Shown here: positions 14,323 through 55,156 of the stretch, in pieces
How the letters are laid out: every line of letters starts with the position of its first letter
Position numbering within the stretch: position 1 is the stretch's first letter
DNA from: a virus
Taxonomy: Duplodnaviria > Heunggongvirae > Uroviricota > Caudoviricetes
Virus record (IMG/VR): IMGVR_UViG_3300017788_000010
Reading direction: 5' to 3' (one strand)
DNA: 64,000 nucleotides
Notes under the pieces: model-generated
Database searches by the model: none
The model's input: only the letters and a program-made list of their open reading frames with translations
Told to the model about the DNA's origin: nothing
Translations under genes and position numbers: made by a program

Positions 14323-14338
14323 TGTGGCATAAGATACT
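14323..14338 (+). promoter_or_regulatory. Conserved promoter-like motif TTGTGGCATAAGATAC (copy 1 of 6)
   Basis: Copy of a motif recurring six times in the window, always on the plus strand and immediately upstream of plus-strand ORFs. It has an extended -10-like TGTGnCATAAGAT core. Confidence 0.5.
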
Positions 14339-14340
14339 GA

Positions 14341-14801
14341 TGAAGCTCTTAACTTCTCTTACTATTAATAAGGTACTGCCTGGCCTGCAGATATACGAGG
14401 CGACGACTTTAGGTAACCACGCACTGTCGAGCAGATATCTATGGGGAACGCACGCGGCAGCCTCTAAATTACTCTGTCCTGTATTCACTATCCGCACCGA
14501 GGAGCGAGACGCTGAGCCGATATACATTGTTGGCGCGTTTGCGCGATATCTGTCGTATAGCGGCAACCTGGTAGAAAAATATGCGTCTGTTAGAGACGAT
14601 TTTATGGACGCTATTGATGAGGATATGTGCGTGCTTGTTAGAGACATACAAACAGTTTCACGTGAGTGGATGCACTATTCAGCCGACACTACAGTCAAAA
14701 GAGTGCTTGTAGATATACGGGGAGATTTAATAGACGGTGTACGAAACGGGAAAATCGATGTGTACGCTACTATCGACGATCTTCCTCCTGACTTTTATTA
14801 A
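14341..14801 (+). CDS. Hypothetical protein (153 aa)
   Basis: ATG lies 2 nt after the motif. The ORF track starts at an upstream TTG inside the motif. It converges on the next minus-strand gene. Confidence 0.5.
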
Positions 14802-15369
14802 ACGTTCTGTTACTTATGGCATCAATAGCCTTGCCTTGTAGATGACCCATAACAAAGGGAGCGGTTGCGGCGCCTACTGTTTTCCAGCTAGCCGGGCCTA
14901 TAAAACCTCTAACGGTGCTGGCCGCTCTGCGTCCAAAAGATCGGTTACCTGCCGGACCCAAGCCTTGTGTGGGTCCGGTAGGCGCACTCTTAGTTAGAGC
15001 TCCCGGGGTGCGTGAGGCTTTGGCAAGCCACATACGCAGGGCGCGAGGAGCGGGCACGAAAGCTTGTTTCTGCATGTCTTCCTCGTCCCAACGACGCATA
15101 TCGTTGCGCATATTTTTTGTCATGCGGTGTACCGCGTACGTCTGTCCTACGCCAAGCGCGACCGGTGCGGCAACAGCTGCCGCAGAATTCATCGTAAGAG
15201 GGACCGTTGCTCCTCTAGCAAAGCGCGCCGCGCCTCCAGCAAACCCGCGCTGCTTAGCTTTTTCAGTAAGCCATGCTCTAGCTCCACGAGTCACAGGAAA
15301 AACAGCTGTCTTATCAAGCCCGGCTGAGATAGCGCTCCCTGCAAGGGACGTTATGTTAGATTCCTTCAT
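14770..15369 (-). CDS. Ala/Gly-rich basic virion-associated protein
   Basis: Minus ORF 14770..15414. The internal Met 16 (MKESN...) is preferred as start, giving a 14-nt overlap with the upstream helicase gene. The overlapping plus-strand ORFs are GC-frame artefacts. Confidence 0.5.
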   Translation of the reverse strand: MKESNITSLAGSAISAGLDKTAVFPVTRGARAWLTEKAKQRGFAGGAARFARGATVPLTMNSAAAVAAPVALGVGQTYAVHRMTKNMRNDMRRWDEEDMQKQAFVPAPRALRMWLAKASRTPGALTKSAPTGPTQGLGPAGNRSFGRRAASTVRGFIGPASWKTVGAATAPFVMGHLQGKAIDAISNRTFNKSQEEDRR

Positions 15370-16810
15370 GTCGCTGTCCTTCTTCTTTGAAAACAGACAA
15401 AACATCATCAACAAGCTTTTGTTTATTACGAGCTAACGACATCATATACGCGTCAGCTCCTTGCTCATATTTCGGCGGCAGTAGGCCGAAAACACGGCTC
15501 TTAGGCTGGGGCTTAACTACATAATGCTCAACCTCTACGTGCCGCTGTCCTGCTGGTAAATGCGCGTGGCTTCTGTTACGAACAGCCCGGCCGACTACCT
15601 GCCGTATTCTAGCGCTATTCCAGTGCGGCTCCATGACTTGCACAGAGCGGGTGCCTTTGAGATCTAGTCCCTCAGCTCCCGCACCGCTGATCAACAGAAC
15701 CTTTATTTTTCCGTCATTATAGTCTTGCACAATCTGCTTACGTTGCTTATCCGATATGCCGCCGTGGAATACGGCGTGAGGAACGCCGGCGGCGCGTAGT
15801 TCTTCCGCTAGCGGCATCACGCCGGCCTGTAGGTAATTAGAATACACTAAAGCCTTATGCTCAGGATCCGCTAACTTATGCGTTAAGCTGGAGAACATAG
15901 CCCGAATCTTAGGGCTCCGTTCATTCGGCCTGCCCTGTATCTTCTGGTTATATGTTAGCGGATCATTCGACACCTGGCGAATACCGGACAAGAAGGCGTT
16001 AAGCTGCTGGCTTTCTTTTTTACTTGGCGGCAGATTAGCGCGTACTTTATAAGCCAAAGAGGGGTTGACGTTCAGAAGCCCCTCATATATACCAGTCTGA
16101 TCCGGCGACATCTGCACCTCTTTAACAGAGTGAGAGACTTCCGGAAACTCTCCTTTAGACTCCTGGTAATCCACTCTCCCTCTAACAAGAGAGGCTAGGC
16201 CCGACTTGTTACGAATAAACCGCTCCTCGCCTGGTTTCACGCCACGCAGCCTAGCAAAAAAACCAGGATTTATTTTACGTGTCCCAACGAACTGCTTATC
16301 AAACTCTACTGCGTTTCTAGGGATTGGCCTATCCTTCGCTATCGCCTGTAAAAGGGGCAGCGCCTCCGAGGGCTCGTTTCGAATAGGCGTGCCTGTTAAA
16401 AGCACCGCCTTTCCAGAAACCTGTTTAGCTAACCGACTTCTGGACGAGTCGGTTCGTCCTAGCCGATGGGCCTCATCAAAGATAACCACATCAGACGGGT
16501 CAAGTTTTTTAGAAGCCTGCTCATATGATTTTATATCGTACTTAGCTCTAGGCTTGTGGACATAGTTAGCTAGTTCTTTTCTATAATTCTCCCGCAAAGC
16601 CGCCGGAACAACTACGCTAGCCTTACCACCAAGAGATTCTGCTATAGCAATGCTAGAGAGCGTCTTACCCGATCCGAGGCCGTGATACAACAGAAGACCC
16701 GGTTCTTTGTTGATCTTTTTTCGTACACGCTCTTGGTGCTCAAGCAGTTTAACATCAGGCCGTATATCGGCATGCTTAAGTAACCCAGCCAGTATAGCGT
16801 TAGCTATCAT
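15356..16810 (-). CDS. Superfamily-2 (SNF2/Rad54-like) helicase
   Basis: Walker A motif GLGSGKT, DEAH-box motif IFDEAHRLG, TGTPIRN motif, and C-terminal helicase-C motifs (LISGAGAEGLDL ... VVGRAVR). Confidence 0.8.
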   Translation of the reverse strand: MIANAILAGLLKHADIRPDVKLLEHQERVRKKINKEPGLLLYHGLGSGKTLSSIAIAESLGGKASVVVPAALRENYRKELANYVHKPRAKYDIKSYEQASKKLDPSDVVIFDEAHRLGRTDSSRSRLAKQVSGKAVLLTGTPIRNEPSEALPLLQAIAKDRPIPRNAVEFDKQFVGTRKINPGFFARLRGVKPGEERFIRNKSGLASLVRGRVDYQESKGEFPEVSHSVKEVQMSPDQTGIYEGLLNVNPSLAYKVRANLPPSKKESQQLNAFLSGIRQVSNDPLTYNQKIQGRPNERSPKIRAMFSSLTHKLADPEHKALVYSNYLQAGVMPLAEELRAAGVPHAVFHGGISDKQRKQIVQDYNDGKIKVLLISGAGAEGLDLKGTRSVQVMEPHWNSARIRQVVGRAVRNRSHAHLPAGQRHVEVEHYVVKPQPKSRVFGLLPPKYEQGADAYMMSLARNKQKLVDDVLSVFKEEGQRHEGI

Positions 16811-17208
16811 AGAGGCACCGTGACTAGCACTTGCCTTCCAGCAGCGTTTACAAGCCGTAGCTCTATGTTAAAGGCCCCTGAATTAAGAGTAGCGTTAATG
16901 AGCTCCAAAGAGAACAGGCGCTCCTCTGACGACCTATCAGAGACTGACTGGTTCGCTATTATATGTGTCTGCGCCGTACGGATGGCTTCAGATACAACAG
17001 GAGCCAACTCCTGGGGGCTCTGTAGGGCGATATCTGTTATGTTTTTGACTAGACTACATCCTCGACCAGTGCGCTCATCAAAATCCGACAGAAGCTCTAT
17101 AAGAACTTCTTGGATCAAAGCAGACATACCGAAAGTGCGTTCGGGTGTGTCTCCCGATACAAAAGTTATTTCCCCGGCTGAGGCGACATTTACTACGTTA
17201 TAGTCCAT
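16807..17208 (-). CDS. Hypothetical protein (133 aa)
   Basis: Start/stop overlaps the helicase gene (ATGA-type coupling). Confidence 0.5.
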   Translation of the reverse strand: MDYNVVNVASAGEITFVSGDTPERTFGMSALIQEVLIELLSDFDERTGRGCSLVKNITDIALQSPQELAPVVSEAIRTAQTHIIANQSVSDRSSEERLFSLELINATLNSGAFNIELRLVNAAGRQVLVTVPL

Positions 17209-17276: not shown

Positions 17277-17852
17277 TCAGCCTTCGGCTTGCTCGCGCAT
17301 CGCTTTACGAGCCTTCATCTTCTTATACAGCTTATAGCCACCGTACGCGGCGCCAGCGCCTAGCGCAGCGGCACCAACACCATACGCAGCCTTCCTGCCT
17401 GTTGACATGGCACCAAAACGGTTACGGGCGTAACGCAGCCTCTCGCGAAGACCGGATAGCATTGAGCCCTTCGCAGCAGCAGCGGGGGCAGCTTGGGCAG
17501 CTTGGGCAAACCCCGCCGCGTTCGCCTTGCGCGCTGAGCGGTAGCTTAACGGCTTCTTCGTGAGCTCCGCGACATTACCTTTAGCGGCAGCGGACATAGC
17601 CTTTTTGTACCCGGCGCTGCCCTTTTTGAACTTCTTAATAGCCGCTAACATCTTAATGCGGTCAGCGGTCGTGGCGGCAGTTTTATCCATACCTTCGACT
17701 ACGCCCTCAAGAAATACATCCTCAAGGGCGGTTTTCTCCATACCGGCTACAACTCCGTTCATGAACGCATCTTCAACTTCATTAGCCATGTTTGTATCTC
17801 CTATAGGGTAAAAAGTAACTAGGCCTGCAATAATATAACTACCAAAAATCAA
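17277..17852 (-). CDS. Ala/Lys-rich protein (191 aa), possible internal virion or scaffold-like protein
   Basis: ORF coupled to the upstream 642-aa gene. Composition is low-complexity A/K/G-rich. Confidence 0.5.
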   Translation of the reverse strand: MIFGSYIIAGLVTFYPIGDTNMANEVEDAFMNGVVAGMEKTALEDVFLEGVVEGMDKTAATTADRIKMLAAIKKFKKGSAGYKKAMSAAAKGNVAELTKKPLSYRSARKANAAGFAQAAQAAPAAAAKGSMLSGLRERLRYARNRFGAMSTGRKAAYGVGAAALGAGAAYGGYKLYKKMKARKAMREQAEG

Positions 17853-19777
17853 TCCGCAAGAAGCACAGCCTCTACATAGTCGCCCTCTGATTGATAGAAG
17901 ATGTTATCAAACAGCTCTGCGGCGCGGACTTCTTCACGAGCGACATCATAGGCGGTCTTTGCTTGGATAACTTGATCCAAATCGCCCGACTCCTGTAAGC
18001 AGGTGGTCGCCACAGCGGCGTACTCCTGTAGCTGGTTATACAGGGTGGCGGTTAGCGAATCAAGGGCGAGGAACCCGCGCACATCCCCTCTAAGCAAGGA
18101 ATCAATGGCCGTATCGAAGCCTCTATCGGACGTAAGGGTGATGAACTGTTGGGCGAGCACTATCCCGGGGCCGGCCTCCTCCTCCAACTTACTTACAGCC
18201 TTAGCTAAGGGATTGCTTAGTAGGCCGGAGGCTAATCTTTCAAATCCAGGAGGCAGGTCGCCAAAGAACACCTCGGCAAACATAGCCCCATGAAAGTTCG
18301 GACGCTCGTCCATATATTGACACAACTTAGCAATGGCAGCGTCACCTGTGCCTACTACAACAGCCGGTGGCAGGTTAAAGGTCATCTTACGCTTAACTAG
18401 ATTAACGTACCTAGTCAAGAAAATATTGATTTCTTCTAAGGAAGTGGTCCCAGAATAACTAGTCATAACCATCTCTGGGGAAACGTCCACCCGGAAATTG
18501 AGCTTCTTCATATTAGTAAACAGCCTGTCCAAATATGAAGTGGACCGCAACAGCTCCTGTGCTATGACCAGTTCAACATACCACTGTTTCTCTTTTAGAA
18601 GATACTTGACGAGCTTTTTTTGAGGAAGGGTTATCTGCATATCGTCTATCATACGAAGCAGGCGGCACCGGACAGCAGAAAGGGTGGGTATATACAAGAA
18701 CCCCGCGCCCGAGCTTTCCGCTATAACGGTCGACTCAAACTCTGCAAAATAATCTGTTCGGCTGCGGTTATCCACGGCCAGCTTATTGAACACCGCTATG
18801 AGCTGCTCTAACTCATATAACAGCCCAGCTATTTTAAGGAACCGTCTAGTAGGCAATATATCTATAATGTCTTTAAAGCTGGTACTTCTGAGAAGCTCTG
18901 CCGCGGCCTTCATATCCGCTTTAGCTACCGCTATATCACCGCCCGGGGAGCCGCCGGTAGTTCTAAGCTGCTCAATAGTGCCGGCTAGGCGACTGTCGGC
19001 CGACTGAACTAAGGACAGGGCTGTGGTTATGATAGCCACGTGATCCGTTACGTAATCATTTTCGTTAAGGTTAGGTATCTCCTTATTGAGCTCCCGGATA
19101 ACGCGAATCATTTGCCTAATGGTGGCCATCTCATTCTTGAGGGTCACTTTAAGAGCGTTGCCAGCAATGTGACGCAATCCGTCACCGAAGCCCTTGTCAA
19201 GGCCCAAACCTATGGCAAAGGAATTGAATACCTGCGCTGCCTGCCTGCGTATCCTACCAAACTGATTGGGTATACCTGTTACACCTGTCCAGGTAGCCGA
19301 CAGTTGGGGAAGGGCAGATCCAGATAAAGGCCCGCATATGTTATTACCGGCCTTACGAGCGTTGTCAGTGAGCAACGCAGAAGTTTCTGGAGCAAAGATA
19401 TCCGCCACATTACCAAACGCGCCTATAGTTGCTGTAGAGGTAGCTACAACAGAGTTTGCGATGGTAGTAGGGTCTTTTATCAGCCCCTCAACTAAAGACT
19501 GCAGAGAATCCCCTGCCAGCAGAGTAGCGTCAAGCAAGGCCGCTCCACCGCTGCTGGAAACCCCTTCGACTAACGAATCAAGAAAGGAGGGGGGCTGTGC
19601 GGGGCCTAGCGTCACACTGTCTTTATCAGCTAGAGCGGCCTCTATCGCAGCTTTTTTAGAGGCCGACTCCGCTGAGCTAATTATGGACAAAATGTCCCGT
19701 ATACTCGTTACGCTAGGAGCACAGTTTCTTCCGAGTGTTTCGGTTCTGATTTCACTGCTTAGCGACAGTAGGGTCAT
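17849..19777 (-). CDS. Hypothetical virion-module protein (642 aa)
   Basis: Long ORF inside a co-directional minus-strand operon. Confidence 0.65.
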   Translation of the reverse strand: MTLLSLSSEIRTETLGRNCAPSVTSIRDILSIISSAESASKKAAIEAALADKDSVTLGPAQPPSFLDSLVEGVSSSGGAALLDATLLAGDSLQSLVEGLIKDPTTIANSVVATSTATIGAFGNVADIFAPETSALLTDNARKAGNNICGPLSGSALPQLSATWTGVTGIPNQFGRIRRQAAQVFNSFAIGLGLDKGFGDGLRHIAGNALKVTLKNEMATIRQMIRVIRELNKEIPNLNENDYVTDHVAIITTALSLVQSADSRLAGTIEQLRTTGGSPGGDIAVAKADMKAAAELLRSTSFKDIIDILPTRRFLKIAGLLYELEQLIAVFNKLAVDNRSRTDYFAEFESTVIAESSGAGFLYIPTLSAVRCRLLRMIDDMQITLPQKKLVKYLLKEKQWYVELVIAQELLRSTSYLDRLFTNMKKLNFRVDVSPEMVMTSYSGTTSLEEINIFLTRYVNLVKRKMTFNLPPAVVVGTGDAAIAKLCQYMDERPNFHGAMFAEVFFGDLPPGFERLASGLLSNPLAKAVSKLEEEAGPGIVLAQQFITLTSDRGFDTAIDSLLRGDVRGFLALDSLTATLYNQLQEYAAVATTCLQESGDLDQVIQAKTAYDVAREEVRAAELFDNIFYQSEGDYVEAVLLAD

Positions 19778-20427: not shown

Positions 20428-20645
20428 ACTCTCGTCACATCATTAACTTTCTGGACCCTTGGCTTAGGTCCTGAATAAGGGGTATAAACAGAAGACACGC
20501 CTGTGTTTATACCAGAAATATCCTGCCCTCGATGAGACCTAGGTATGTGCTTAGCGTCCGGGTATGGCTCTATGTATTGCATACCCGTAACAACAGCCCG
20601 GGCTAATTTGCGCAGTGTTGTAAAAAAATAGTCAGTTTGTGGCAT
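20424..20645 (-). CDS. Small hypothetical protein (73 aa)
   Basis: First gene of the leftward small-gene run. Its ATG is the CAT inside promoter-motif copy 2 on the other strand. Confidence 0.4.
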   Translation of the reverse strand: MPQTDYFFTTLRKLARAVVTGMQYIEPYPDAKHIPRSHRGQDISGINTGVSSVYTPYSGPKPRVQKVNDVTRV

Positions 20646-20652
20646 AAGATAT
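20637..20652 (+). promoter_or_regulatory. Conserved promoter-like motif TTGTGGCATAAGATAT (copy 2)
   Basis: Exact 16-mer; 50 nt upstream of the plus-strand ATG at 20702. Confidence 0.5.
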
Positions 20653-20701: not shown

Positions 20702-20959
20702 ATGCCAGGCGTACACAAGTATATACTCAAACGAGTCTATTCACTCATATCCCATACCATTCCCCACCTTGTCGACATAGCCTACAGTGTCGGCCAAACC
20801 CTACGAAATCGGACGTTGCCCATACCTACGAATAGGACACTGTCCATACCTACGAAATCGATCACTTTCAGTTTTTGTATTCCATCCGTAGCCCGGAACC
20901 GTTTTCCCATTACTTCTATAAGATCAGGGCGGGACGCCGCTCTGATGTACTTTTACTAG
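20702..20959 (+). CDS. Hypothetical protein (85 aa)
   Basis: ATG-initiated plus-strand ORF downstream of motif copy 2. It contains the short-repeat region. Confidence 0.35.
   Translation: MPGVHKYILKRVYSLISHTIPHLVDIAYSVGQTLRNRTLPIPTNRTLSIPTKSITFSFCIPSVARNRFPITSIRSGRDAALMYFY
20799..20865 (+). repeat. Short direct repeats: CCATACCTACGAA twice and CCTACGAAATCG twice
   Basis: Seen directly in the sequence between the convergent genes 20702..20959 (+) and 20956..21423 (-). Confidence 0.5.
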
Positions 20960-22847: not shown

Positions 22848-22863
22848 TTGTGTCATAAGATAT
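22848..22863 (+). promoter_or_regulatory. Conserved promoter-like motif TTGTGTCATAAGATAT (copy 3)
   Basis: Motif copy, 43 nt upstream of the ATG at 22906. Confidence 0.5.
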
Positions 22864-22905: not shown

Positions 22906-23619
22906 ATGAAAAATACCAAAAGACTCGACAGAGAGATAATCGAGCACGAGCGCTGGAACAGCTCCGCTAAGTCCACCATTGACCGCAAGGGATGGCGCAA
23001 GGACCCTGAGAACGCCTCTGAGACGGGCAAACTGTGCGACTGGTTCGGGTGGAGCGGAAAGAAAAAAGAACGCCACGACAACCTGAACCCGCTGTACGGC
23101 TTCTTGAGAAAACACGTTGGGCAGCCCTACGACAAAGTGTACTCTGAGTTGTGCCAGCGATACGATCGCCGCAGGTTTGATGGATGGCGTCTGCATAACC
23201 GCCTGAGCATCACCGTGTACCCCTGGATGGAATTTCAGACGTTGTCTGGAAAGGGCTTCCTGCGCTACAGACTGAACTACACAGACATCTTTTATGTAGA
23301 CGCCGCGGGTATCTTGCGGTATACCGGCCAACGTCAGAGACCTTTCGGTAAGGCTGGTCGTAGGGACAAGGTGGCTGAAGAACTCGCCAAGGGTCGCTTT
23401 GAAAAGAACGGCAAGCTGTACCGAAAACTGGACGGCTGCTGGTTTGTCGTGACCCTGGACCCGACCGACCTGTTCGCTGTCTCCGAGGGTTTTGTGCCCG
23501 GTAACCCGGCAGCGAAGACCTTCTACAAATACCGTAAGGACAATCCCAGAATACAAACAAAGCGGCAGCTCGGGAAGAGAGAGCTGTCGGAGCTGGGTCT
23601 GGTTAACGATGCGGCATAG
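22906..23619 (+). CDS. Hypothetical basic protein (237 aa)
   Basis: Plus-strand ORF with a charged, protein-like composition, preceded by the motif and followed by tRNA-Ser. Preferred over the fully overlapping minus ORF 22798..23649, which is L/V/A/Q-rich and antisense-like. Confidence 0.5.
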   Translation: MKNTKRLDREIIEHERWNSSAKSTIDRKGWRKDPENASETGKLCDWFGWSGKKKERHDNLNPLYGFLRKHVGQPYDKVYSELCQRYDRRRFDGWRLHNRLSITVYPWMEFQTLSGKGFLRYRLNYTDIFYVDAAGILRYTGQRQRPFGKAGRRDKVAEELAKGRFEKNGKLYRKLDGCWFVVTLDPTDLFAVSEGFVPGNPAAKTFYKYRKDNPRIQTKRQLGKRELSELGLVNDAA

Positions 23620-24990: not shown

Positions 24991-25023
24991 GGGTCAGGGG
25001 TTCGAATCCCTTATCGCCCACCA
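24991..25023 (+). pseudogene. tRNA 3' fragment (T-arm AGGGG-TTCGAAT-CCCTT, acceptor ATCGCCC, discriminator A, CCA) with no usable 5' half nearby
   Basis: Perfect T-loop and CCA end, but the preceding 33 nt cannot supply acceptor/D/anticodon arms. The complementary 5' acceptor strand lies 760 nt upstream at 24228. Confidence 0.4.
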
Positions 25024-25062
25024 ACACGAGGCCATGGCGAAATAGGTAGCCGCAGCAGACTT

Positions 25063-25814
25063 CACTCTTTGCATACAAAACACTGCGTATTACACTTTAG
25101 AAAAGAGGTAATGTGCAATGAAAAAACTTGTGTGCATAAAATGCGGTAAGTCCAGAGAGGTAGGTAGACGCGTGTGTGCGGCTTGTCATAAGGAAATAGC
25201 TAGAGAGCGTCAAAAACAACGTGCAGCTGTAGCCGGTCGGTATATGTACGACCTACTATGCGTGTGCTGCTTTTCCTCATTTAAGGGGTGGAGGAGCACA
25301 CAGCAGTGGTGCGGCGCGTGTTACGACAGCAGAGCGGTTCTAAGAAAGAACAAACTGAAAGCAACAAACCGATACGTGTTTACCCAGACTCCTGGGAGAA
25401 CACAGCACAAGGATGTTGCAGAACAGGCCCTAGGTAGGGCGCTTAACTCTAACGAAACGGTTCATCATATGGACCACGATCCGAAAAACAACCACATAAC
25501 TAATCTGGTTGTTTTGACAAGAAGTACGCATGGCAAGCTACATAAGTATCTAGACGACCAACGAGCCCTCCTAGAGAAATCTAGGATGGTGAATTCCGAG
25601 AATTGCTGGAACACCCTTATAGCTCCCATGACTACAGCGTGGTTGGAAACGACGGGCGCGAAAGTCAAAAAACTATGGGAGATTGGGCAATCAGCAGGCG
25701 AGCGCCGTACAGGCGAAGCTTCAGAGACTAGGCACGGAACACCTGACCATTAAGTTGCAGGTGATGATATAGTCCAGACTACAACGAGAGGCTAGCGAAA
25801 GCTAGAGTAGTAAG
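25063..25814 (+). mobile_element. Group I intron in tRNA-Leu(UAA), encoding an HNH homing endonuclease
   Basis: Conserved core elements: R-like TTCAGAGACTAGG (about 25714), S element GATATAGTCC (about 25777), a P9 hairpin with GAAA tetraloop, and terminal G (omega-G) at 25814. Insertion is after U34 as in the classic tRNA-Leu(UAA) introns. Confidence 0.7.
25118..25753 (+). CDS. HNH homing endonuclease (211 aa) with N-terminal CxxC...CxxC zinc finger, intron-encoded
   Basis: HNH motif ETVHHMDHDPKNNHITNLVVLTRSTHGKLH. Zinc-finger CIKCGK...CAACHK. The C-terminus overlaps the intron catalytic core (R element lies inside the coding region). Confidence 0.8.
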   Translation: MKKLVCIKCGKSREVGRRVCAACHKEIARERQKQRAAVAGRYMYDLLCVCCFSSFKGWRSTQQWCGACYDSRAVLRKNKLKATNRYVFTQTPGRTQHKDVAEQALGRALNSNETVHHMDHDPKNNHITNLVVLTRSTHGKLHKYLDDQRALLEKSRMVNSENCWNTLIAPMTTAWLETTGAKVKKLWEIGQSAGERRTGEASETRHGTPDH

Positions 25815-25872
25815 AAAATCTGCTACCGAAAGGTGTCCTGGGTTCGAGTCCCGGTGGCCTCACCACACTTCA

Positions 25873-26914: not shown

Positions 26915-27457
26915 TTACCTTAATGACCTTAGTATCTCATAAGCGTTTTCTACTAGCTCTCTACCCAAACGTCGGCCTCCAGCATGCACTCTAACAAGAG
27001 GTGTTTTACGTGCTGGTTCTATATACAGGCGGGCGTTTGGGTAGGTGCTGCAAAGTAGCGTCGCGGCCTCTTTGTCCGGAGAATAGAGAACAAGTCTAGG
27101 CGCTCTTTTGAGCTTATAGACATCTCTTAAAAGCCAGACAACGAGGTCGATCAAAGCAGTGTCTGTGTTGCAAAAACAAACGCACGTGGTCCTGTCTGTA
27201 TGCCACCCCTCGCATAAATAAGCGACGTGGGCGGCAACAGATTTGGGGCTATACAGCTCCTCTCTAGTAGGGGTCTCGTGCGACCGGCGGCAAAGATAGT
27301 TGTACTCAGAGGCTGGGCGTGTGTCAATACCGTAACGGCGCATGTAGCTCCGTACAGTTTTGTGATCACAACCAAGCTCCTTAGCAACTTGATAAACCGT
27401 CTTTTGGTTTGTGCAATACTCGGCAACTAATTGATCTTTTGAGATGCGAAGAGTCAT
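26915..27457 (-). CDS. HTH + LAGLIDADG-like protein (180 aa) encoded antisense within the tRNA-Leu(UAG) group I intron
   Basis: N-terminal HTH QKTVYQVAKELGCDHKTVRSYM. Motif YLCEGW and downstream LK-x-P...LVLY align with the 24239..24877 protein. The stop codon overlaps the last 2 nt of tRNA exon 1. Confidence 0.5.
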   Translation of the reverse strand: MTLRISKDQLVAEYCTNQKTVYQVAKELGCDHKTVRSYMRRYGIDTRPASEYNYLCRRSHETPTREELYSPKSVAAHVAYLCEGWHTDRTTCVCFCNTDTALIDLVVWLLRDVYKLKRAPRLVLYSPDKEAATLLCSTYPNARLYIEPARKTPLVRVHAGGRRLGRELVENAYEILRSLR

Positions 27458-27710
27458 TGAACCTGAGCGCTTAATCAGAAATGGTTAAGTAGAACGAAGC
27501 TGTATGCGGGAAACCCCTAAAGCCTGTGGTACTACGCGACTAACAAAAGTGTAGTAAAAATCCACAGGATGTCAAATGGGCAACCCGCAGGGAAGACGGT
27601 CGCCGTCCCCTCAGAGACTAAACGCTTCGCTCCTGACCGGCCGGTGGCTAGAAGGAGATGATATAGTCCAGACCACAACCGTAAGGCTTAGCGAAAGCTA
27701 GGGTGGTAAG
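26917..27710 (+). mobile_element. Group I intron in tRNA-Leu(UAG) with complete P/Q/R/S core; carries an antisense ORF
   Basis: P-like ATGCGGGAAA (about 27503), Q-like AACCCGCAGG (about 27582), R TCAGAGACTAAA (about 27620), S GATATAGTCC (about 27660), P9 GAAA tetraloop, and omega-G at 27710. The 3' roughly 130 nt are near-identical to the tRNA-Leu(UAA) intron. Confidence 0.7.
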
Positions 27711-27768
27711 AGGATCTTGTGTCGAAAGACGTGTGGGTTCGAGTCCCACCTTCCGCACCACCTACAAA

Positions 27769-29500: not shown

Positions 29501-29505
29501 TAGAA

Positions 29506-32218: not shown

Positions 32219-32249
32219 ACAATAAGTATAGCAAAAAGATATGCAAAAA

Positions 32250-37351: not shown

Positions 37352-37355
37352 TTCT

Positions 37356-41591: not shown

Positions 41592-42337
41592 AACACAACA
41601 GCGGTTCGTAGCGGCTTATTATAGCTATCCTGAGCACAACTAGCTTGCTCAAAATAACGCAGGCTTGCCTCATGCAACGGGTTTGTGCCGTTGTATACCA
41701 CTAAGTTTTTTTGTATAAACACTACCGAAGAGCTGCCAGCCATCTCAAAGATAGGTAAACATATAACAACGTCCGGTGCGGCAGTAAAATATTCACCATT
41801 GTCGTCTCTAAGATGCTTATCTTCTAGATGCTTAGTATAGCCTACACGAAACGTTCTAAGATGAGAAAACGGCCACCCATTTTTCTTCAAATCACGCCGT
41901 AGATTAGACCAATCAGGAACACGACAACAAGAAGGTATTCCTCTATCATCTACGTAGTTTCCGTAGGTTGCGCCCGCTCCTGTGTCTCGGTACACATAAT
42001 GTACTGTAGATACAGCGGCTTTTGTACTAAACCAATCATCCCCATCTAGTTGCGCAATAACATCATAGTCAGTGCCGAGTTCTCGGGCTTTAGCAAATCC
42101 ATCTAGTTGCGACTGTATAGGGCCTAGATTCTTTTCGTGTGTAATAACAATTTGTCTAGGCCCACTATATTTTTTGATCTCGTCGGCTGTCTTATCAGTA
42201 GACCCGTCATCGATTATGATGTGGTGAATTTCAAAATCGTCTGTTATCTGCTCATTAACAGATTGGATACATTTACCTATATAGGCTTCTGCATTATATG
42301 TACCTGACACAACAAAATACTTCTTAGGTGCCTGCAT
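41588..42337 (-). CDS. GT2 family glycosyltransferase
   Basis: YFVVSGTYNAEAYIGKCIQS ... HIIIDDGSTDKT ... LDGDDWF. Confidence 0.65.
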   Translation of the reverse strand: MQAPKKYFVVSGTYNAEAYIGKCIQSVNEQITDDFEIHHIIIDDGSTDKTADEIKKYSGPRQIVITHEKNLGPIQSQLDGFAKARELGTDYDVIAQLDGDDWFSTKAAVSTVHYVYRDTGAGATYGNYVDDRGIPSCCRVPDWSNLRRDLKKNGWPFSHLRTFRVGYTKHLEDKHLRDDNGEYFTAAPDVVICLPIFEMAGSSSVVFIQKNLVVYNGTNPLHEASLRYFEQASCAQDSYNKPLRTAVVL

Positions 42338-42908
42338 GTATTTTCTTTCTGTTAACTCTACTTGCTTGAGTATGCAGTATTACGGGGTTGGGTACTGTCG
42401 CTAATCCGCTTATCCACACATATTCTTCAGGTATATTCAACCAGTCGTAGGACCCGGCCTCGATTATTTTTTGTAGTGTTTTCTGATCCCATGTTCCCGG
42501 CTCGGTTTTGTTACGGGAATCCCACAAAGCTACCAAGTCTTTACATGTTTCTGTATTAGGTAAATAAAGCGTGCCTGACAAAAGCTCTACTCCTCTGAAA
42601 TAGTGAAAGGCTATATCACACTCAGGGAATCTATCAAACAATGTGGGATAGCTAAGTACGCGGGCGTCTGAATCTAGGTACACTACAGGGCCTGTAATCT
42701 CTTCTAGAGCTTTACACAACACCGCGCTCTTGAGCTGTGTATTTCTTTCCCAGGAACCAGTAGATACCACAGCATATTCCTTATGAATAAGCTTGTGCTT
42801 ATCTAATGTTTCAACTAGTTTTTTTGATTCTGCTTCATACGGAGTATTGATAGTGTAAAAAGATACGTAGGTCGGCTTAGTCGTCATACCCACCAAAATC
42901 TTCAACAC
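42324..42908 (-). CDS. Nucleotide-diphospho-sugar transferase-like protein (194 aa)
   Basis: VVYLDSDARV (D-x-D) in a GT-A-like context. First gene of the leftward cluster. Confidence 0.45.
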   Translation of the reverse strand: MLKILVGMTTKPTYVSFYTINTPYEAESKKLVETLDKHKLIHKEYAVVSTGSWERNTQLKSAVLCKALEEITGPVVYLDSDARVLSYPTLFDRFPECDIAFHYFRGVELLSGTLYLPNTETCKDLVALWDSRNKTEPGTWDQKTLQKIIEAGSYDWLNIPEEYVWISGLATVPNPVILHTQASRVNRKKIHAGT

Positions 42909-43094
42909 CTATTTTGTCTTTTGGGCGAAACGTTAGTACCCGTCCGGTCTTCAATACTATCTGAACGGACGTTTCACTTATTCTAGTTACCTCTAAAACA
43001 CGTACGGCCACACCATCCTCTCGGATAACGTCGCCTGCAAGAACATCCTCTGCTTGAATCAACTTCGCCATACAAACTACCTAAACTCCAAAAA

Positions 43095-43111
43095 AATGTG
43101 TCATAAGATAT
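43095..43111 (+). promoter_or_regulatory. Conserved promoter-like motif ATGTGTCATAAGATATC (copy 4)
   Basis: Motif copy in the divergent region between the glycan cluster and the plus-strand genes. Confidence 0.45.
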
Positions 43112-43639: not shown

Positions 43640-44437
43640 ATGAGTAGCTTAACCCTTTCCATTCATAGCGACCTTCATCTTGAATTTGATGACGAGGCTG
43701 GACACGAGTTCGACCTTGACCTCACTGATGTAGACGTCCTTATCCTCGCAGGAGATATACACATGGGACGACAGGCCGTAACCTACTTAACAAAATGGGC
43801 GGCGCATGTACCCAACATTCTATATATAGCAGGAAACCACGAATACTATATGAATGACTTTGACAAACTTTTTCCAGATATAAAAACTATGGCGGCCGCT
43901 ATCCCCGGCGTGGTAGTTATGGAAAATGATGAGGTAATCATCAAAGGCACCAGGTTTCTCGGCTGCACTATGTGGACAGACATGCATCGCGGGTCGGTCA
44001 GAGCACTCCGCCTAGCAGAAGATCGCATGAATGATTACCATCTAGTACACCGTGGAAAAGCAAAGTTGCGAGGTAGGGACACCGTAAATCGCCACGACCA
44101 ATCAAAAGAGTGGCTAACCGGTAAACTAAAGCAGCCCTTCTCAGGCCCTACGGTGGTAATAACCCACCACCTACCCACACCGTTTGTAGTGGCTGAGGAA
44201 TTCAAACATGACTATTTGTCCGCGGCATACGCCTCTACTGATCTAGACCCGTTAATAACGGAATGTGATCTATGGGTCTTTGGTCATCAACACACAACTA
44301 CCTTGAAAACTGTTGACAGGGCAGATCAAGGTAAAACCATCCTCCTGTCAAATCCCCGCGGGTACTACCCGCAACGTCTCAACGAAAACTATGAGCAACG
44401 CCAACGCTTCCTCATCGAACCCCGGAAACAAGCCTAG
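43640..44437 (+). CDS. Calcineurin-like metallophosphoesterase
   Basis: Motifs DLH ... GD ... GNHE ... H-x-H (GHQH). Confidence 0.7.
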   Translation: MSSLTLSIHSDLHLEFDDEAGHEFDLDLTDVDVLILAGDIHMGRQAVTYLTKWAAHVPNILYIAGNHEYYMNDFDKLFPDIKTMAAAIPGVVVMENDEVIIKGTRFLGCTMWTDMHRGSVRALRLAEDRMNDYHLVHRGKAKLRGRDTVNRHDQSKEWLTGKLKQPFSGPTVVITHHLPTPFVVAEEFKHDYLSAAYASTDLDPLITECDLWVFGHQHTTTLKTVDRADQGKTILLSNPRGYYPQRLNENYEQRQRFLIEPRKQA

Positions 44438-44459
44438 CGGCGACAAAGAACTGAAACGG

Positions 44460-45215
44460 ATGCGTGTCGAACCGGGCGCGCGTATCCCTCGCTCGGTGAC
44501 CCTGAACATGGACACCGGCATGACGCTGCTGTCAGCGGAGGTGCGTGATCAGATTCTGCGGCTTCCTGACAATCTCTATGATGGCGAGGCGACGATGATC
44601 ATCTCTGGTGACATCGCCAGGGATGGGGTCTCCCCTACCCGCGCCATCGGCTTCGAACGTCGCTTCAACGGCTCGGCCCGCGTCGACTGGGCAGTCGACT
44701 GGGCATGGCGCGTTCCCTCCAAGTGGGTACACAACGAAAAGCGTCGCTCGCCGGACGCGTTCGTTGGCGCCCTGGTTTTCCTGGAAACCGACGGGGACAA
44801 GGACGCCAGCGAGATCGAACGCTGGACACACCTGGAGATCACCAGTGTGACGAGCCACGCCGTGGCGGCTCGTCGGTCGTTTGTGGTGCACGTCGGGCGG
44901 TTCATCTACGAGCCCCAAGAGCTCGCGGACTACTACCGGAAGGTGTACTCGCAGGTCTTGTTCGGCAGCAAGAGCGTCACGAGCAACCGGGTCAAGGGGC
45001 GCTACACCGCGCTTCTGAACACCTTCACCGCGGACAACGTCGCGCGGCTGTGCGAGGGGGTCGACTTCGTCAACTACGCTGCGGACGCCGAGCCCGGCGA
45101 ACCCGTGGCAGACGCCGGCGAAGGCGAGGGCGAACCAGAGCAGGTGGACGAGGTGGCTGTGGCCGCCGTCCAGCCGCGCGCGGCGCAAGGCTTCCGGGCC
45201 TCTAACCCCACGTAG
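44460..45215 (+). CDS. Hypothetical protein in a GC-rich island (251 aa from Met 50 of the track ORF)
   Basis: First ATG after the stop of the upstream gene. About 65% GC. Acidic Pro/Glu-rich C-terminus. Confidence 0.45.
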   Translation: MRVEPGARIPRSVTLNMDTGMTLLSAEVRDQILRLPDNLYDGEATMIISGDIARDGVSPTRAIGFERRFNGSARVDWAVDWAWRVPSKWVHNEKRRSPDAFVGALVFLETDGDKDASEIERWTHLEITSVTSHAVAARRSFVVHVGRFIYEPQELADYYRKVYSQVLFGSKSVTSNRVKGRYTALLNTFTADNVARLCEGVDFVNYAADAEPGEPVADAGEGEGEPEQVDEVAVAAVQPRAAQGFRASNPT

Positions 45216-45223
45216 CGACTACA

Positions 45224-45262
45224 AGCAGTATGTGGGGGAAACCCCACGTACTGCTTTTTTAC
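45224..45262 (+). terminator. Bidirectional rho-independent terminator
   Basis: Hairpin AGCAGTATGTGGGG-gaaa-CCCCACGTACTGCT followed by TTTTTT, between convergent genes. Confidence 0.7.
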
Positions 45263-45531: not shown

Positions 45532-46259
45532 GTTTTATAAACGTCGTTACCCATGATCTCATATAAAGACGGAACAATTATGCCGTTAGTGTATCTAGTT
45601 AAACTACTGAACCCGACCTGCCAGTCAGCGTAACTAGTCATCTCATATCCAGGGTCCAGAAGACTTAAAGTACCCGTCTCTACTCCGAATAGACGCTCAT
45701 TAGCAGCGGTTCTGCGATGAACTATAGCTAGCCGGTGAATATGTCCGACCACACAGCTGGCCATGTAGCGATCCATCCACTTAGTTACAGTTGTTCCGGC
45801 TTTGGAGCCCATGAGCCCGTCACCGTGAACTAGATAACAGTTTCCAAAAATAAACCCGGACGGGGCCAGGGTTATCTTGAACTTCTCTAGTTGCAGCGCT
45901 TCTCCTAAGCTAAAACGTTTAGAACCATCAAGTTCAGGAGCGTGGTCGCGGAGATACTTATTCCAGCGAATCTCGTGATTCCCTAGAACAAACATTATTC
46001 TGGCTTTTGGGGCGGCGTCGCGTACCTCAGAGAGGAATTCCGCAAACCCATCTAGTTCCTCATCTATTCCCTGGCGGCGCTTGGGATCACGCGAGTACCG
46101 CGAGATAGCGTAGAAATCAATAGCATCGCCGTTGATGTTAACAACCTGAGGCCGCTCGTGTTTAATATACTCCAGAGCTACTTTGGTAGCTGCTTTATTG
46201 TGATAAGGAACATGTATATCTGATATGGTAAAGAGACGGTCTTTAACCTTCTGCATCAC
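45528..46259 (-). CDS. Calcineurin-like metallophosphoesterase
   Basis: Motifs DIHVP ... NGDAID ... VLGNHE ... YLVHGD. Confidence 0.7.
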   Translation of the reverse strand: MMQKVKDRLFTISDIHVPYHNKAATKVALEYIKHERPQVVNINGDAIDFYAISRYSRDPKRRQGIDEELDGFAEFLSEVRDAAPKARIMFVLGNHEIRWNKYLRDHAPELDGSKRFSLGEALQLEKFKITLAPSGFIFGNCYLVHGDGLMGSKAGTTVTKWMDRYMASCVVGHIHRLAIVHRRTAANERLFGVETGTLSLLDPGYEMTSYADWQVGFSSLTRYTNGIIVPSLYEIMGNDVYKT

Positions 46260-46969
46260 AAATTCTCAGCAATCCTATCTGTTAGGCTTCGTCTTATTTT
46301 GTAGACCTGATCGGTCGATAGACCGGTCTTCTTAGACAGGTCTACTACTGAATGTATAATCGGTTTTCCGTGCGCACCTAGAGAATAATCGTAAATTTGT
46401 CTTTCAGTGGGCGAGAGAGATGAATACAGCAGCTCCGCCGTCTCGTGCATTCTAGATGTGAGCTGCGTGGCCTTACCCTGGTCCTCATAATCCATAGACG
46501 ACAGATCACGCTGCTTCAAGGCCTGCTCCATAGAGAAGACGTCGTTTCGGCTCCAGCCGAGCTCGTCCGATATCTCAGATACAGTAGGGGCCCTTCCGTA
46601 CTGAGCCTGTAGAAGAGACCGTACGCTCATAAAGTGCCGCATTCTGAGAAACTTGTTCTCAGGAACACGAGCTATGTTCTTATTGGAGTTTACGTATCTA
46701 TTCAGCCCTCTAAGCGTGTGTTCTAGATAAGTTCTGAAGGAGGCGCCGGATGCCGGCGAGTACTTCTCTAACGCCAGCAGAAACAGGTTGAACGCCTCGC
46801 CCTCTACAGCAGCTCCCGGTACCGGGGCTTTTCTGTAGTTATAAACCTTCACGTCTATAAGATCCTTATTCATACGAATTAGATCGTTTAGCGCTATCTT
46901 GTCTCCGGCCTGTGCTCTACGTACTAGGCCAGCTTCGGTGTTGTCAGCTATTTTTCTTAGAATGTTCAT
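46256..46969 (-). CDS. Sigma-70 family RNA polymerase sigma factor (phage-encoded)
   Basis: Region 2-like FRTYLEHTLRGLNRYV and region 4 HTH LSPTERQIYDY ... LSKKTGLSTDQVYKIRRSL. Confidence 0.75.
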   Translation of the reverse strand: MNILRKIADNTEAGLVRRAQAGDKIALNDLIRMNKDLIDVKVYNYRKAPVPGAAVEGEAFNLFLLALEKYSPASGASFRTYLEHTLRGLNRYVNSNKNIARVPENKFLRMRHFMSVRSLLQAQYGRAPTVSEISDELGWSRNDVFSMEQALKQRDLSSMDYEDQGKATQLTSRMHETAELLYSSLSPTERQIYDYSLGAHGKPIIHSVVDLSKKTGLSTDQVYKIRRSLTDRIAENL

Positions 46970-54026: not shown

Positions 54027-54249
54027 CTTTGATCTCCAGAACCAGTCTACCACCGCCGGTGACCATGTTATAGGACTTACTCTGCATATCCATGAGCGCC
54101 GCCACCTGTCTAGCCGTGGCGTCTCGTTTATTAGAAATATAATCCGTAAAGTACTCTATTCTTAGGCGATCGATCATTTCTTTGGCCTTCTCTCCGTCCT
54201 TGGCCAACAAGTACACTATGTTAGATTGCTCTACATAGCGCATAGTCAT
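54016..54249 (-). CDS. Hypothetical protein (77 aa)
   Basis: ORF in the structural operon. Confidence 0.4.
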   Translation of the reverse strand: MTMRYVEQSNIVYLLAKDGEKAKEMIDRLRIEYFTDYISNKRDATARQVAALMDMQSKSYNMVTGGGRLVLEIKDAK

Positions 54250-54356
54250 CTGGCGCCTATAGTACTCTACAAAATCAAGCTGCTCTAGCTCGTCGTAGTC
54301 ACGAATGTCTGCCCCGCTATTTATTAGGGCCTCTACCCTAAAAAAAGCTAGCGGGG

Positions 54357-54959
54357 TTAGGTAGGGTTTTTGAGGTTCTCTACTAGAGCCAAGTTCTTAG
54401 CCACATTAAGGTCATTAAACAACCCAAATAGGAACAAAAACAACGACTCATCTAGGTTCTCTACTATGTCAATAGCGGCCTTTACCTGCTCGTCTTGTTC
54501 CCAAGTACTTAACGTATCAGGAGTTAGTTTGACAGACGGGAACGACCGTGTATCTAGCTTCTCTATAGCAAGCGTAAGCACATACGTTCTATATCTGGGA
54601 TCGGCCGCACCCGTGCCGTCAACAGAGCCGGCTAACGGGGCTAAAGCCAAGCGTTCCCGTGTCTTCAAGCTACGCATAGTCACAGACATGTTTCCTATGC
54701 TAAAAACACAGGTAACCTTTCCTGTAAGCAGGTGGGTTTTGTCCTGTACTTGATCATATATCTTAGAAAACCGGGTTTTAAAATCAGAATAGCTGAGCTC
54801 GCCGTAGATAGTAGGTACTGTTTCAGGTAGTTGCTTATTTACAGCCTCTGATATACCAGCATTCTGCTGCTCACGCTCCTCTATTACAGAGGGTTGTCTA
54901 GGTGTGGCTGCTGAAGCGGCCTTAGTCAATACGTCCTTTGCGCTATTTAGCGGGGTCAT
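54357..54959 (-). CDS. Hypothetical virion protein (200 aa)
   Basis: Start set at Met 29, which has SD AGGAGAG 7 nt upstream. First gene after the divergent promoter region. Confidence 0.55.
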   Translation of the reverse strand: MTPLNSAKDVLTKAASAATPRQPSVIEEREQQNAGISEAVNKQLPETVPTIYGELSYSDFKTRFSKIYDQVQDKTHLLTGKVTCVFSIGNMSVTMRSLKTRERLALAPLAGSVDGTGAADPRYRTYVLTLAIEKLDTRSFPSVKLTPDTLSTWEQDEQVKAAIDIVENLDESLFLFLFGLFNDLNVAKNLALVENLKNPT

Positions 54960-55070
54960 TAATAGCTCTCCTATAGCTAGTGCCTTATAAGTGTAGCACC
55001 GGATAGGCCCTAAAAGGTAAAAAAACCATAAAAACACACCCATTAAATAGGGATCAAATACAGACCAAAA

Positions 55071-55140
55071 GGGGGTATTTTAGGCCAAAAAGGGCTATTT
55101 TAGGCCAAAAAAGGGCTATTTTACGCAAAAATAGGCCTAT
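55071..55140 (+). repeat. Three and a half tandem copies of a 21-nt unit GGGCTATTTTAGGCCAAAAAA
   Basis: Seen directly: gggggtattttaggccaaaaa / gggctattttaggccaaaaaa / gggctattttacgcaaaaata / ggcctattt. Immediately upstream of motif copy 5. Confidence 0.6.
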
Positions 55141-55156
55141 TTGTGGCATAAGCTAT
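55141..55156 (+). promoter_or_regulatory. Conserved promoter-like motif TTGTGGCATAAGCTAT (copy 5), candidate promoter of the RT/Ubl operon
   Basis: Motif copy, 58 nt upstream of the 55215 ORF and about 430 nt upstream of the reverse transcriptase. Confidence 0.45.

Follow-up and report, generated by a model that had tools for sequence, protein, structure and literature searches.

A candidate lineage-specific promoter class with an extended -10 motif, probably read by a phage-encoded sigma factor, in a large myovirus-like phage

How does a phage transcribe plus-strand gene units that interrupt its long minus-strand operons? The question is raised by the IMG/VR virus record IMGVR_UViG_3300017788_000010 (Caudoviricetes), from which we analysed a stretch of 64,000 nucleotides, hereafter the window, that forms part of a large myovirus-like phage. 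Six copies of a 16-nt motif lie in this window, all in plus orientation and each at the head of such a unit (sites P1 to P6, Table 1). We consider, with a probability of about 0.72, that the motif is the extended -10 and -10 part of a promoter class particular to the lineage of this phage, that the class directs rightward transcription of the six plus-strand units, and that a sigma factor encoded by the phage itself would read it. The class would thereby drive the units that break up the minus-strand operons.

The motif is far more frequent than expected by chance. The 16-mer TTGTGKCATAAGATAT has two exact matches, at 20637 and 22848, for which shuffled sequences give an expectation of 0, and three further copies, at 14322, 43096 and 55141, differ from it by a single mismatch. 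When up to three mismatches are allowed, five matches are found, all on the plus strand, against an expectation of 0.79, and none of 100 shuffles reaches five. A partial sixth copy lies in register at 32248-32263 (AAAAGGCATAAGATAT); it retains GGCATAAGATAT and lacks the TTGT. The first-pass annotation of this DNA, which had listed six plus-oriented copies, therefore stands for all six sites as five full-register copies and one partial copy, with two of its positions moved by one nucleotide (14323 to 14322 and 43095 to 43096) and its copy at 32250 being the partial one. Both CATAAGAT and TGTGnCATAAG occur five times in the window, always on the plus strand, the former each time at a motif site. 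A blind direct-repeat search of the whole window also returned the motif element as its top family (D1, 42 nt, 4 copies).

The positions of the copies are equally regular. All six are intergenic, in a window of which about 6% is intergenic DNA, and every copy lies in a divergent gap, with a minus-strand operon starting to its left and a plus-strand unit starting to its right. The distance from the end of the motif to the open reading frame (ORF) is 2 nt for the ATG at 14340, 49 nt for 20702, 42 nt for 22906, 60 nt for 32324 and 58 nt for 55215. The downstream gene of the copy at 43096 is ambiguous, as a 15-codon ORF begins at 43115 and the first solid gene at 43640; the earlier statement that an ORF begins 0-60 nt after every copy thus holds for five sites (2-60 nt) and not clearly for this one. 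For scoring, a matrix was built from 12 sites of relatives only, leaving out the window and its 87% relative. Its five best matches in the window were the sites at 22854 (31.4 bits), 55147 (29.8), 20643 (27.6), 32254 (22.9) and 43102 (22.8), while the next match reached 13.8 bits and the best of 20 shuffles 15.6. The site at 14328, which has the core but not the upstream box, was not among these five. A motif search of the kind suggested earlier for the complete genome, made here on the window, thus recovers five of the six sites as top matches, above all 20 shuffles.

The anatomy of the element was derived from an alignment of 20 sites, gathered with a regular expression for the core and placed with CATAAG fixed at -12 to -7. 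Upstream, a box is conserved at C-34 (13/20), A-32 (13/20), A-31 (17/20), A-30 (16/20), A-29 (15/20) and T-27 (11/20). The extended -10 region shows T-17 (14/20), G-16 (14/20), T-15 (15/20) and G-14 (20/20), followed by G or T at -13. Within the hexamer, A-11, T-10, A-8 and G-7 are found in 20/20 sites and A-9 in 17/20. After five variable bases come T-1 (16/20), G+1 (14/20) and A+2 (16/20). The full architecture would accordingly read as a CnAAAAnT-type box (C-34, A-32 to A-29, T-27), T-17 G-16 T-15 G-14 K-13, CATAAG, N5 and T-1 G+1 A+2, the last being the likely start. The -35-like box, located about 17-18 bp upstream, is not TTGACA; it is missing at P1 and weak at P5.

Extended -10 promoters have the form TGnTATAAT, and a 'TRTG' -16 region is known from Gram-positive promoters. 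Judged from the aligned positions, the layout described above has the geometry of an extended -10 promoter of the sigma-70 family, apart from C-12 and G-7. The resemblance includes TG at -15/-14 (with T/G also at -17/-16), A-11 T-10 A-9 A-8, an element about 17-18 bp upstream and a predicted pyrimidine/purine start 6-7 nt past the hexamer, whereas C-12, the invariant G-7, an A-rich CnAAAAnT box in place of TTGACA and the failure of a consensus scan to find the sites set it apart. The extended -10 reading proposed in the first-pass annotation is therefore supported in its geometry, but its hexamer is CATAAG and not TAAGAT, which is ruled out because its last T (T14 of the motif) is not conserved in relatives. 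A sigma-54 site (TGGCAC-N5-TTGC) was ruled out by inspection, since half of the sites have GT in place of GG and the spacing does not fit. A generic sigma-70 scan misses all six sites, and its hits in the window do not exceed those in shuffles (17 vs 19.9 and 28 vs 25.7), which agrees with the earlier proposal of a phage-specific promoter class.

Conservation in relatives argues that the element is functional and indicates the strand that it serves. Loci around the baseplate and sigma genes were fetched from relatives with 44-87% protein identity and G+C contents of 0.47-0.64. The core G(G/T)CAT(A/G)AG recurs intergenically in eight of these loci (L123, L124, L126, L128, L129, L131, L215 and L216), always on the strand equivalent to the plus strand of the window. 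Orthologous positions are retained while their flanks have diverged. They are found at the 153/155-aa gene behind P1 (L123 2377(-), where ATGTGGCATAAGA is kept and the ATG called as start of the 155-aa gene is the equivalent one), at the small gene 20702 behind P2 (L124 4448(-) and L126 4365(-)) and at the 22848 divergent junction of P3 (L126 1759(-)). In L215 and L216, they lie ahead of the same metallophosphoesterase island as P5 (13406(-) and 13123(-), respectively) and upstream of the reverse transcriptase (RT) unit, as P6 does (L215 1577(-) and 1397(-); L216 817(-) and 429(-)). The site L131 4026(-) has a GCAAAAAT box identical to that of P6, at identical spacing. Given that the six window sites all lie in divergent gaps, position within the window alone cannot tell which strand is served. 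In relatives, no fewer than eight sites are flanked on both sides by genes of the same orientation as the motif and stand 39-81 nt ahead of the start of the downstream one (co-directional sites, Table 1); they indicate that the motif serves the downstream gene on the same strand, in agreement with the plus-strand action first proposed.

The searches also had negative outcomes. The Pseudanabaena phage PA-SR01, a relative through its helicase only that served as negative control, has no intergenic motif in its first 50 kb. An exact 15-mer scan of IMG/VR gave only single scattered chance matches, and neither the single-protein searches of IMG/VR with the baseplate and sigma proteins nor a scan of metagenome contigs with a 261-aa protein alignment returned anything. 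Separately, sigma-70-like TTGACA-N17 elements with a recurring ATTGTAG were seen in the divergent gap beside the baseplate gene of the 44-51% relatives (L128 9836-10000, L129 9913-10000, and L130 and L131 9934-10000). They point at an operon that includes a helix-turn-helix (HTH) gene and may represent a separate host-type promoter class.

A homologous promoter is found in the nearest isolate, Salmonella phage Arash, whose helicase and sigma factor are 39% and 28% identical to those of the window, and in its relatives. In Arash, (T)GGTATAAG-N5-TGTA occurs about 30 times. Apart from one, these copies share the strand of the ~90-kb non-structural block and are located 20-40 nt before a Shine-Dalgarno (SD) sequence with ATG or before a tRNA; the remaining copy lies in front of gp9 and the sigma gene gp10. 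A set of 76 IMG/VR loci was retrieved by means of the Arash RNA polymerase (RNAP); in these, GGTATAAG occurs 126 times on the strand opposite to the RNAP gene and five times on the same strand, and it is the commonest of 560 composition-matched permutations (131 vs a median of 25). The 100 distinct Arash-like sites show T-36 TCAA T-31, an 18-bp spacer, T-15 (75%), G-14 (100%) and a further G, TATAAG, N5, T-1 (91%) and G+1 (64%); G-7 is present in 100/100. Arash and its ~76 IMG/VR relatives thus share with the window family C-34/A-33/A-32, T-15 G-14, YATAAG with G-7, N5, T-1 G+1 and the strand logic, as well as homologous sigma and SNF2 helicase genes. Their -35 box is TTCAAT, with an 18-bp spacer. 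They differ in having T rather than C at -12 and a fixed G-13. They also differ in encoding a bacterial-type RNAP (a beta-beta'N fusion plus beta'C), of which none was seen in the window or in the loci of its closer relatives. Vibrio phages D69, D148 and D181, which have the RNAP of Arash as well, are cultured members of this group. The Arash paper contains no promoter analysis (PMC10585845), and none for this phage group was found in the literature searched; the GGTATAAG class of Arash-like phages is apparently unpublished. Arash (OQ632216) also has five copies of a different element, ...gttgtaacctttgtaaccccacctcaagacccttaTATAAGAttaggtaccctttatatattacg..., dispersed over its genome on the minus strand at 26739, 66486, 100242, 138589 and 173363, identical over at least the 82 nt shown, which may be another promoter class or a mobile element.

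The simplest candidate for the reader is the sigma-70-family factor encoded in the window (Table 1), a homologue of Arash gp10. The presence of such a gene, already proposed in the first-pass annotation, is confirmed by matches to PHROG 351 'RNA polymerase sigma factor' (1e-12) and to sigma-F 1l0o_C (1e-7 over regions 2-3), and by a profile of its 19-member family, for which SigA, sigma-F, RpoS and RpoH are matches at about 5e-11 and some of the alignments extend over profile positions 15-233. Among the family members, Pfam finds Sigma70_r3 in 19/19 and r2 in 10/19, and its region 4 model matches none of the 19. By eye, the C-terminus (LSPTERQIYDYSLGAHGKP...DQVYKIRRSL) looks like the helix-turn-helix of region 4. 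A hidden Markov model alignment to SigA places FRTYLEHTLRG-LNRYV in region 2.3-2.4 where SigA has FSTYATWWIRQAITRAI; speculatively, the apparent loss of the Trp pair and of the Gln/Thr that contact -12 in sigma-70 would fit the altered hexamer. The sigma factor matches Arash gp10 with a tblastn E value of 5e-12 at 28% identity. In relatives, the sigma and baseplate genes share contigs (of 123,279 and 148,876 bp), and the sigma gene and the motif share the loci L215 and L216. An identical sigma is encoded on a contig of 144,691 bp, which implies that over half of this genome lies outside the 64-kb window.

In the mechanism that we propose, this sigma factor would contact T-15 G-14 through region 3, the YATAAG hexamer through region 2 and the upstream box through its putative region 4. 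It would work with either the host's core enzyme or a bacterial-type RNAP of the Arash kind encoded outside the window. In Arash, mass spectrometry of purified virions detected the sigma factor gp10, the helicase gp217 and the RNAP subunits gp206 and gp216 (PMC10585845). The fusion protein gp206 comprises beta and beta'N (Pfam Rpb2_6 3e-56, Rpb1_1 and Rpb1_2), and gp216 carries Rpb1_5. Beta subunits as long as those of bacteria (~1113-1153 aa), encoded on metagenomic and IMG/VR contigs, have about 55% identity with gp206. As an observation in its own right, a large and mostly uncultured set of phages (IMG/VR loci L139-L214, proteins P0069-P0188), many with 130-190 kb, encodes a bacterial-type RNAP in which beta is either fused to the N-terminal half of beta' (~1500-1600 aa) or unfused (~1113-1153 aa), with 45-95% identity to gp206.

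Of the proteins shared with Arash, the SNF2/RapA-like helicase is conserved best (39%). Its Arash counterpart is virion-associated (PMC10585845), and the Arash helicase gene adjoins that of beta'C. Near the window's helicase gene, separated from it by two small ORFs, a conserved 642-aa protein is encoded at 17849-19777 (-), with 35 homologues in 1.8 billion representatives. This protein, encoded where Arash has beta'C, was tried as the counterpart of that subunit and rejected, as hhalign gave a probability of 0.1 with both 3 and 31 sequences, no PDB sequence matched, and its all-helical AlphaFold model (pLDDT, the predicted local distance difference test, 63) had no Foldseek match at E<=0.001.

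It is possible, though we regard it as doubtful, that the YATAAG promoter is recognized by a transcription system complete in itself and dependent on a sigma factor, which is brought in with the virion and allows early transcription without the host sigma. The sigma factor, in Arash-like phages together with the beta-beta' polymerase and the RapA-like helicase, would be packaged and injected, and the specificity for G-7 would insulate the phage promoters from the host holoenzyme. Such a system would be common to a large, almost wholly uncultured clade with genomes of ~120-190 kb. The 'early' timing given in the first-pass annotation would rest on analogy with Arash, namely on the kinds of genes that follow the motif there and on the packaging of gp10.

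Several points weigh against a phage promoter read by this sigma factor. No RNAP subunit gene was detected in the 64-kb window or in the loci fetched from relatives (Pfam on large proteins, tblastn). The IMG/VR contigs of the window family were not among the RNAP matches either, in a search that used two peptide patterns only. With 64 kb seen of a genome of at least 144.7 kb, a second sigma factor, like gp196 of Arash, could be the true reader. Both the start site and the sigma dependence are predictions made from the DNA, and so is the assignment of the window's sigma factor to the motif. P1 has no upstream box and P4 no TGTG. The -35-like box resembles a half-site of the 21-bp repeats that precede P6 (described below) and could bind an activator, at about -30, rather than sigma region 4. 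There is also some circularity in the invariance of the core, considering that the sites were collected with a regular expression for that core.

The main alternative is that these are ordinary extended -10 promoters of the host housekeeping sigma, so that the units would be host-dependent early or moron genes and the phage sigma would serve other genes. The geometry is indeed exactly that of TGnTATAAT promoters, TGGTATAAG of Arash fits eight of nine consensus positions, morons typically carry host-type promoters, and the window has yielded no phage RNAP. However, host sigma-70 strongly prefers T at -7, and the consensus TATAAT has T at both -12 and -7, whereas G-7 is invariant in ~150 sites from phages of Salmonella, probably Vibrio and unidentified hosts, with G+C contents of 0.47-0.64. 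Having G where host sigma-70 promoters have T argues against a host sigma and, given that this non-consensus base is kept across different hosts and base compositions, we infer that a conserved phage protein is a simpler reader than the sigma of each host. Further against the alternative, the window family has C-12, the core stays constant across G+C contents while the phage sigma co-varies with it, and matches to the sigma-70 consensus are not enriched. We therefore consider a host-read promoter unlikely. It is less probable still that the conserved block is an operator for a phage repressor or activator overlapping weak promoters. In favour of an operator one may cite the length and strict conservation of the motif, the array of palindromic 21-bp repeats before P6 with a half-site like the A-rich box, and the HTH genes of relatives, but the block itself is not palindromic and keeps a fixed sigma-70-like spacing to a T/G start-like element and to the upstream box in ~120 sites of two families. 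Moreover, its bases fit the -10 consensus at -11 to -8 and TG at -15/-14, and no alternative -10 is visible nearby.

Two other explanations appear very improbable to us. One of them has the motif acting on the minus strand, as a promoter or 5' leader of the leftward operons, for which one may cite the leftward ATGs 23-25 nt from the motif at 14299, 22823 and 43071, the location of all six window sites in divergent gaps and a reverse complement that contains TATCTT. The co-directional sites of relatives speak against it, as do sites in L124 and L126 that lie between two opposite-strand genes with only a small same-strand ORF downstream. The distance to the minus-strand ATG also varies (an overlap at 20645 but 98 nt at 55043), and the upstream box and the TGA element make sense in plus orientation only. 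The copies could also be remnants or targets of a mobile element, such as a homing endonuclease site or the end of a miniature inverted-repeat transposable element, that delivered the plus-strand cassettes; the motif flanks cassettes that are in some cases GC-rich or missing from relatives, and the P3 unit contains HNH genes and group I introns. Similarity is nevertheless limited to ~42 nt, with no second end or inverted repeat, and conserved core non-structural genes follow the motif in relatives and Arash. Cassette shuffling can be favoured by a promoter itself, so that this explanation would add to the promoter reading rather than replace it.

Considering the phage promoter as the preferred reading, the predicted leaders measure 47 nt for P2, 40 nt for P3, 58 nt for P4 and 56 nt for P6, while that of P5 is ambiguous. 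Several of them contain 5'-proximal hairpins, which are statistically weak in the window (z -0.4 to -1.9) compared with those in L126 and L128 (-3.3 and -3.4). The TTG, CTG or ATG found 1-3 nt after the motif, which had been taken to suggest leaderless or near-leaderless transcripts, are mostly the conserved T-1 G+1 A+2, present also in relatives and Arash, and not start codons. The sole credible leaderless case is the gene at 14340, whose ATG lies 7 nt after the P1 hexamer, with its A as the predicted start. Its 153-aa product aligns from residue 1 with the orthologue of L123, the 87% relative, where no upstream start exists in frame, and it is this conservation of the N-terminus that makes the gene a leaderless candidate.

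The units behind the promoters differ in size and content. P2 precedes an 85-aa ORF (20702-20959), whereas P3 heads a unit of 6.7 kb with the ORF 22906-23619, tRNAs, intron-containing genes, MazG and a DenV-like glycosylase. P4 lies upstream of a GC-rich ORF (32324-33223), the P5 unit contains a metallophosphoesterase gene (43640-44437) and a GC-rich ORF (44313-45215), and P6 precedes a 92-aa ORF (55215-55493). Terminator-like hairpins are enriched over shuffles (28 vs 18.5 and 43 vs 18.0), and the strongest ones of the plus strand lie at the ends of plus-strand units. The P2, P3 and P5 units end in such hairpins and therefore form promoter-gene-terminator cassettes. The genes 32345-33223 and 44313-45215, with G+C contents of 0.61 and 0.63 in a window of 0.485, have no Pfam or PHROG match and are probably recent acquisitions behind P4 and P5, and the gene 14340-14801 is missing from the 55-56% relatives (L124 and L126). 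The earlier description of several plus-strand genes as lying in GC-rich, probably acquired islands is thus partly supported: some units are cassette-like, but only two of the six are GC-rich.

Some units resemble, in this respect, the moron or promoter early stem-loop (PeSL) cassettes of lambdoid and T4-type phages, with a promoter of their own, a strong terminator in the case of P2, P3 and P5, and gene content that is patchy (P1) or atypical in composition (the two genes behind P4 and P5). P3 and P6, which head long blocks, do not fit this type. A further difference is that the promoter is here the phage's own class and not of host type, and that in relatives and Arash it also drives large non-structural blocks. 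In the 51% relative L128 (2851-5505 (-)), the promoter is part of a ~210-nt cassette present in four copies between genes. Each cassette consists of a terminator-like hairpin AGGCCAAGAGCCCTTCGAGGTTCTTGGCC, the promoter TGGCATGAGTTGAAT, a 5' hairpin TCCGGGAAC...CCCGGA, an A-run and a second hairpin with SD sequence, and resembles the mobile promoter-stem-loop cassettes of T4-type phages.

The operon downstream of P6, at 55583-60648, encodes an RT (RVT_1 3e-17), two unknown proteins of 259 and 119 aa, a JAB-domain protein, a ThiF/E1-like protein and a protein with a weak ThiS-like C-terminus. The proposal that the motif drives this RT/ubiquitin-like (Ubl) operon needs revision: because a strong hairpin precedes the RT gene, P6 could drive the operon only by read-through in this phage. 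In L215, the RT gene begins 22 nt after the small first gene, leaving little room for a hairpin of the 55500-55534 type. A weak candidate for an internal promoter lies within the JAB-domain ORF, ~240 nt before the ThiF-like gene, and is possibly a seventh copy; it scores 9.7 bits, within the range of shuffles, and the CATGAG variant is used in the relative L128. Upstream of P6, in the divergent gap, a tandem array at 55065-55142 contains 3.8 copies of a 21-bp imperfect palindrome, CCAAAAAGGGCTATTTTAGG, and runs into the -35-like box. Similar GGCC(A/T)AAAAT repeats occur upstream of the orthologous promoters in L215 and L216. The array is possibly an operator or binding array for a dimeric regulator, or a set of iterons.

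Table 1. Promoters, hairpins and selected genes of the 64,000-nt window, and co-directional sites in relatives
Feature	Position	Strand	Description
3752-aa protein	1083-12341		orthologues in relatives have weak TIG and Laminin_G_3 matches
Baseplate-J protein	12341-14299		
P1	14305-14341	+	core TTGTGGCATAAGATAC at 14322-14337; CATAAG at 14328-14333; no -35-like box
SNF2 helicase	15356-16810	-	
P2	20620-20656	+	A-rich box GTAAAAAAAT; core TTGTGGCATAAGATAT at 20637-20652; hexamer 20643-20648; predicted +1 ~G 20655
Terminator-like hairpin	20923-20946	+	end of P2 unit; 10-bp stem
P3	22831-22867	+	box GTAAAAT; core TTGTGTCATAAGATAT at 22848-22863; hexamer 22854-22859; predicted +1 ~G 22866
Strong terminator-like hairpin	29502-29534	+	closes P3 unit; 14-bp stem with 7 GC pairs, T-rich tail; directly after ORF 29237-29500
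P4 (partial)	32231-32267	+	box GCAAAAAG; AAAAGGCATAAGATAT at 32248-32263; hexamer 32254-32259; predicted +1 ~G 32266
P5	43079-43115	+	core ATGTGTCATAAGATAT at 43096-43111; hexamer 43102-43107; predicted +1 ~G 43114
Strong terminator-like hairpin	45223-45256	+	closes P5 unit; 15-bp stem and T run; directly after ORF 44313-45215
Sigma-70-family factor	46256-46969	-	237 aa; regions 2 and 3, probable region 4
P6	55124-55160	+	box GCAAAAAT; core TTGTGGCATAAGCTAT at 55141-55156; hexamer 55147-55152; predicted +1 ~G 55159
Strong terminator/attenuator hairpin	55500-55534	+	16-bp stem and T run; between 92-aa ORF and RT gene (ATG 55583)
Weak candidate internal promoter	59173-59209	+	GTGTCATGAG (59192-59201)-N5-TTGAAGG; CAAAAT upstream
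Co-directional sites in relatives	L124 1582, 328; L128 4806, 4200, 2931; L129 8811; L131 4032; L216 429		

The deposited phage collection holds no near-identical DNA match to the window, and its metagenomic relatives form a family with contigs of 120-190 kb. Besides the genes of Table 1, the window encodes metallophosphoesterases, and its plus strand carries tRNAs, two group I introns, an HNH gene, MazG, a DenV-like glycosylase and the RT-JAB-ThiF-ThiS-like operon. The group I introns (Rfam 25492-25795 and 27448-27691) appear to lie inside tRNA genes, in the regions 25028-25866 and ~27380-27761. The acceptor 5' strand GAGGCCA at 25028 pairs with TGGCCTCACCA, which ends at ~25863, and the T-arm GGTTCGAGTCC lies just upstream of the latter; the ~760-nt insert in that tRNA contains the HNH ORF 25118-25753. 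A second T-arm and acceptor end is found at 27734-27761 and a third, orphan tRNA 3' end at 24997-25020, and ARAGORN recovered none of these split tRNAs, also with its intron option. Beside the structural genes, the minus-strand block 33242-43071 encodes an NAD-dependent epimerase, and its counterparts in L215 (14552-20711) and L216 (14177-20708) also include glycosyltransferases of families 2, 11 and 25, methyltransferases and UDP-glucose dehydrogenase. The block and its counterparts are a phage-borne sugar-modification cluster.

Phage sigma factors that redirect the host core are well known and include T4 gp55, which serves the late promoters TATAAATA, gp28 and gp34 of SPO1, and gp36 of phiEco32. 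The motif of the window is probably a further case of such phage-sigma promoters, and its consensus is undescribed in the literature searched. It shares with these classes the combination of a phage sigma gene and a strictly conserved, non-host -10-type motif before one set of genes. The Arash TATAAGTA differs from T4 late TATAAATA by one base, although T4 late promoters have no -35 or extended -10 parts, whereas the promoter of the window has a -35-like and an extended -10 part. The window's sigma factor also differs in that it appears to be a full region 2-3-4 factor and in that its Arash homologue is packaged in the virion. A possible likeness exists to the early promoters of the virion RNAPs of phiKZ, AR9 and N4, in which a phage motif is read by injected proteins independently of the host sigma. 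These promoters lack -35/-10 geometry. The virion RNAPs of phiKZ, AR9 and N4 use no sigma-70-family factor (PMC7598289, PMC7824862).

The model CnAAAAnT-N-TGTGKCATAAG-N5-TGA can be scanned for and would delineate transcription units in uncultured phages of ~120-190 kb, and it extends to cultured relatives, namely Arash and probably the Vibrio phages D69, D148 and D181. It also connects the promoter with a conserved phage sigma factor that, in Arash, travels in the virion together with a bacterial-type RNAP. Promoter and sigma factor together could be used as an orthogonal expression module, and the Arash system is culturable. If true, the pairing would offer a natural experiment on the recognition of positions -7 and -12 by sigma region 2, and a sigma-dependent holoenzyme that is injected and recognizes a G-7 hexamer would constitute a new route by which phages become independent of their hosts.

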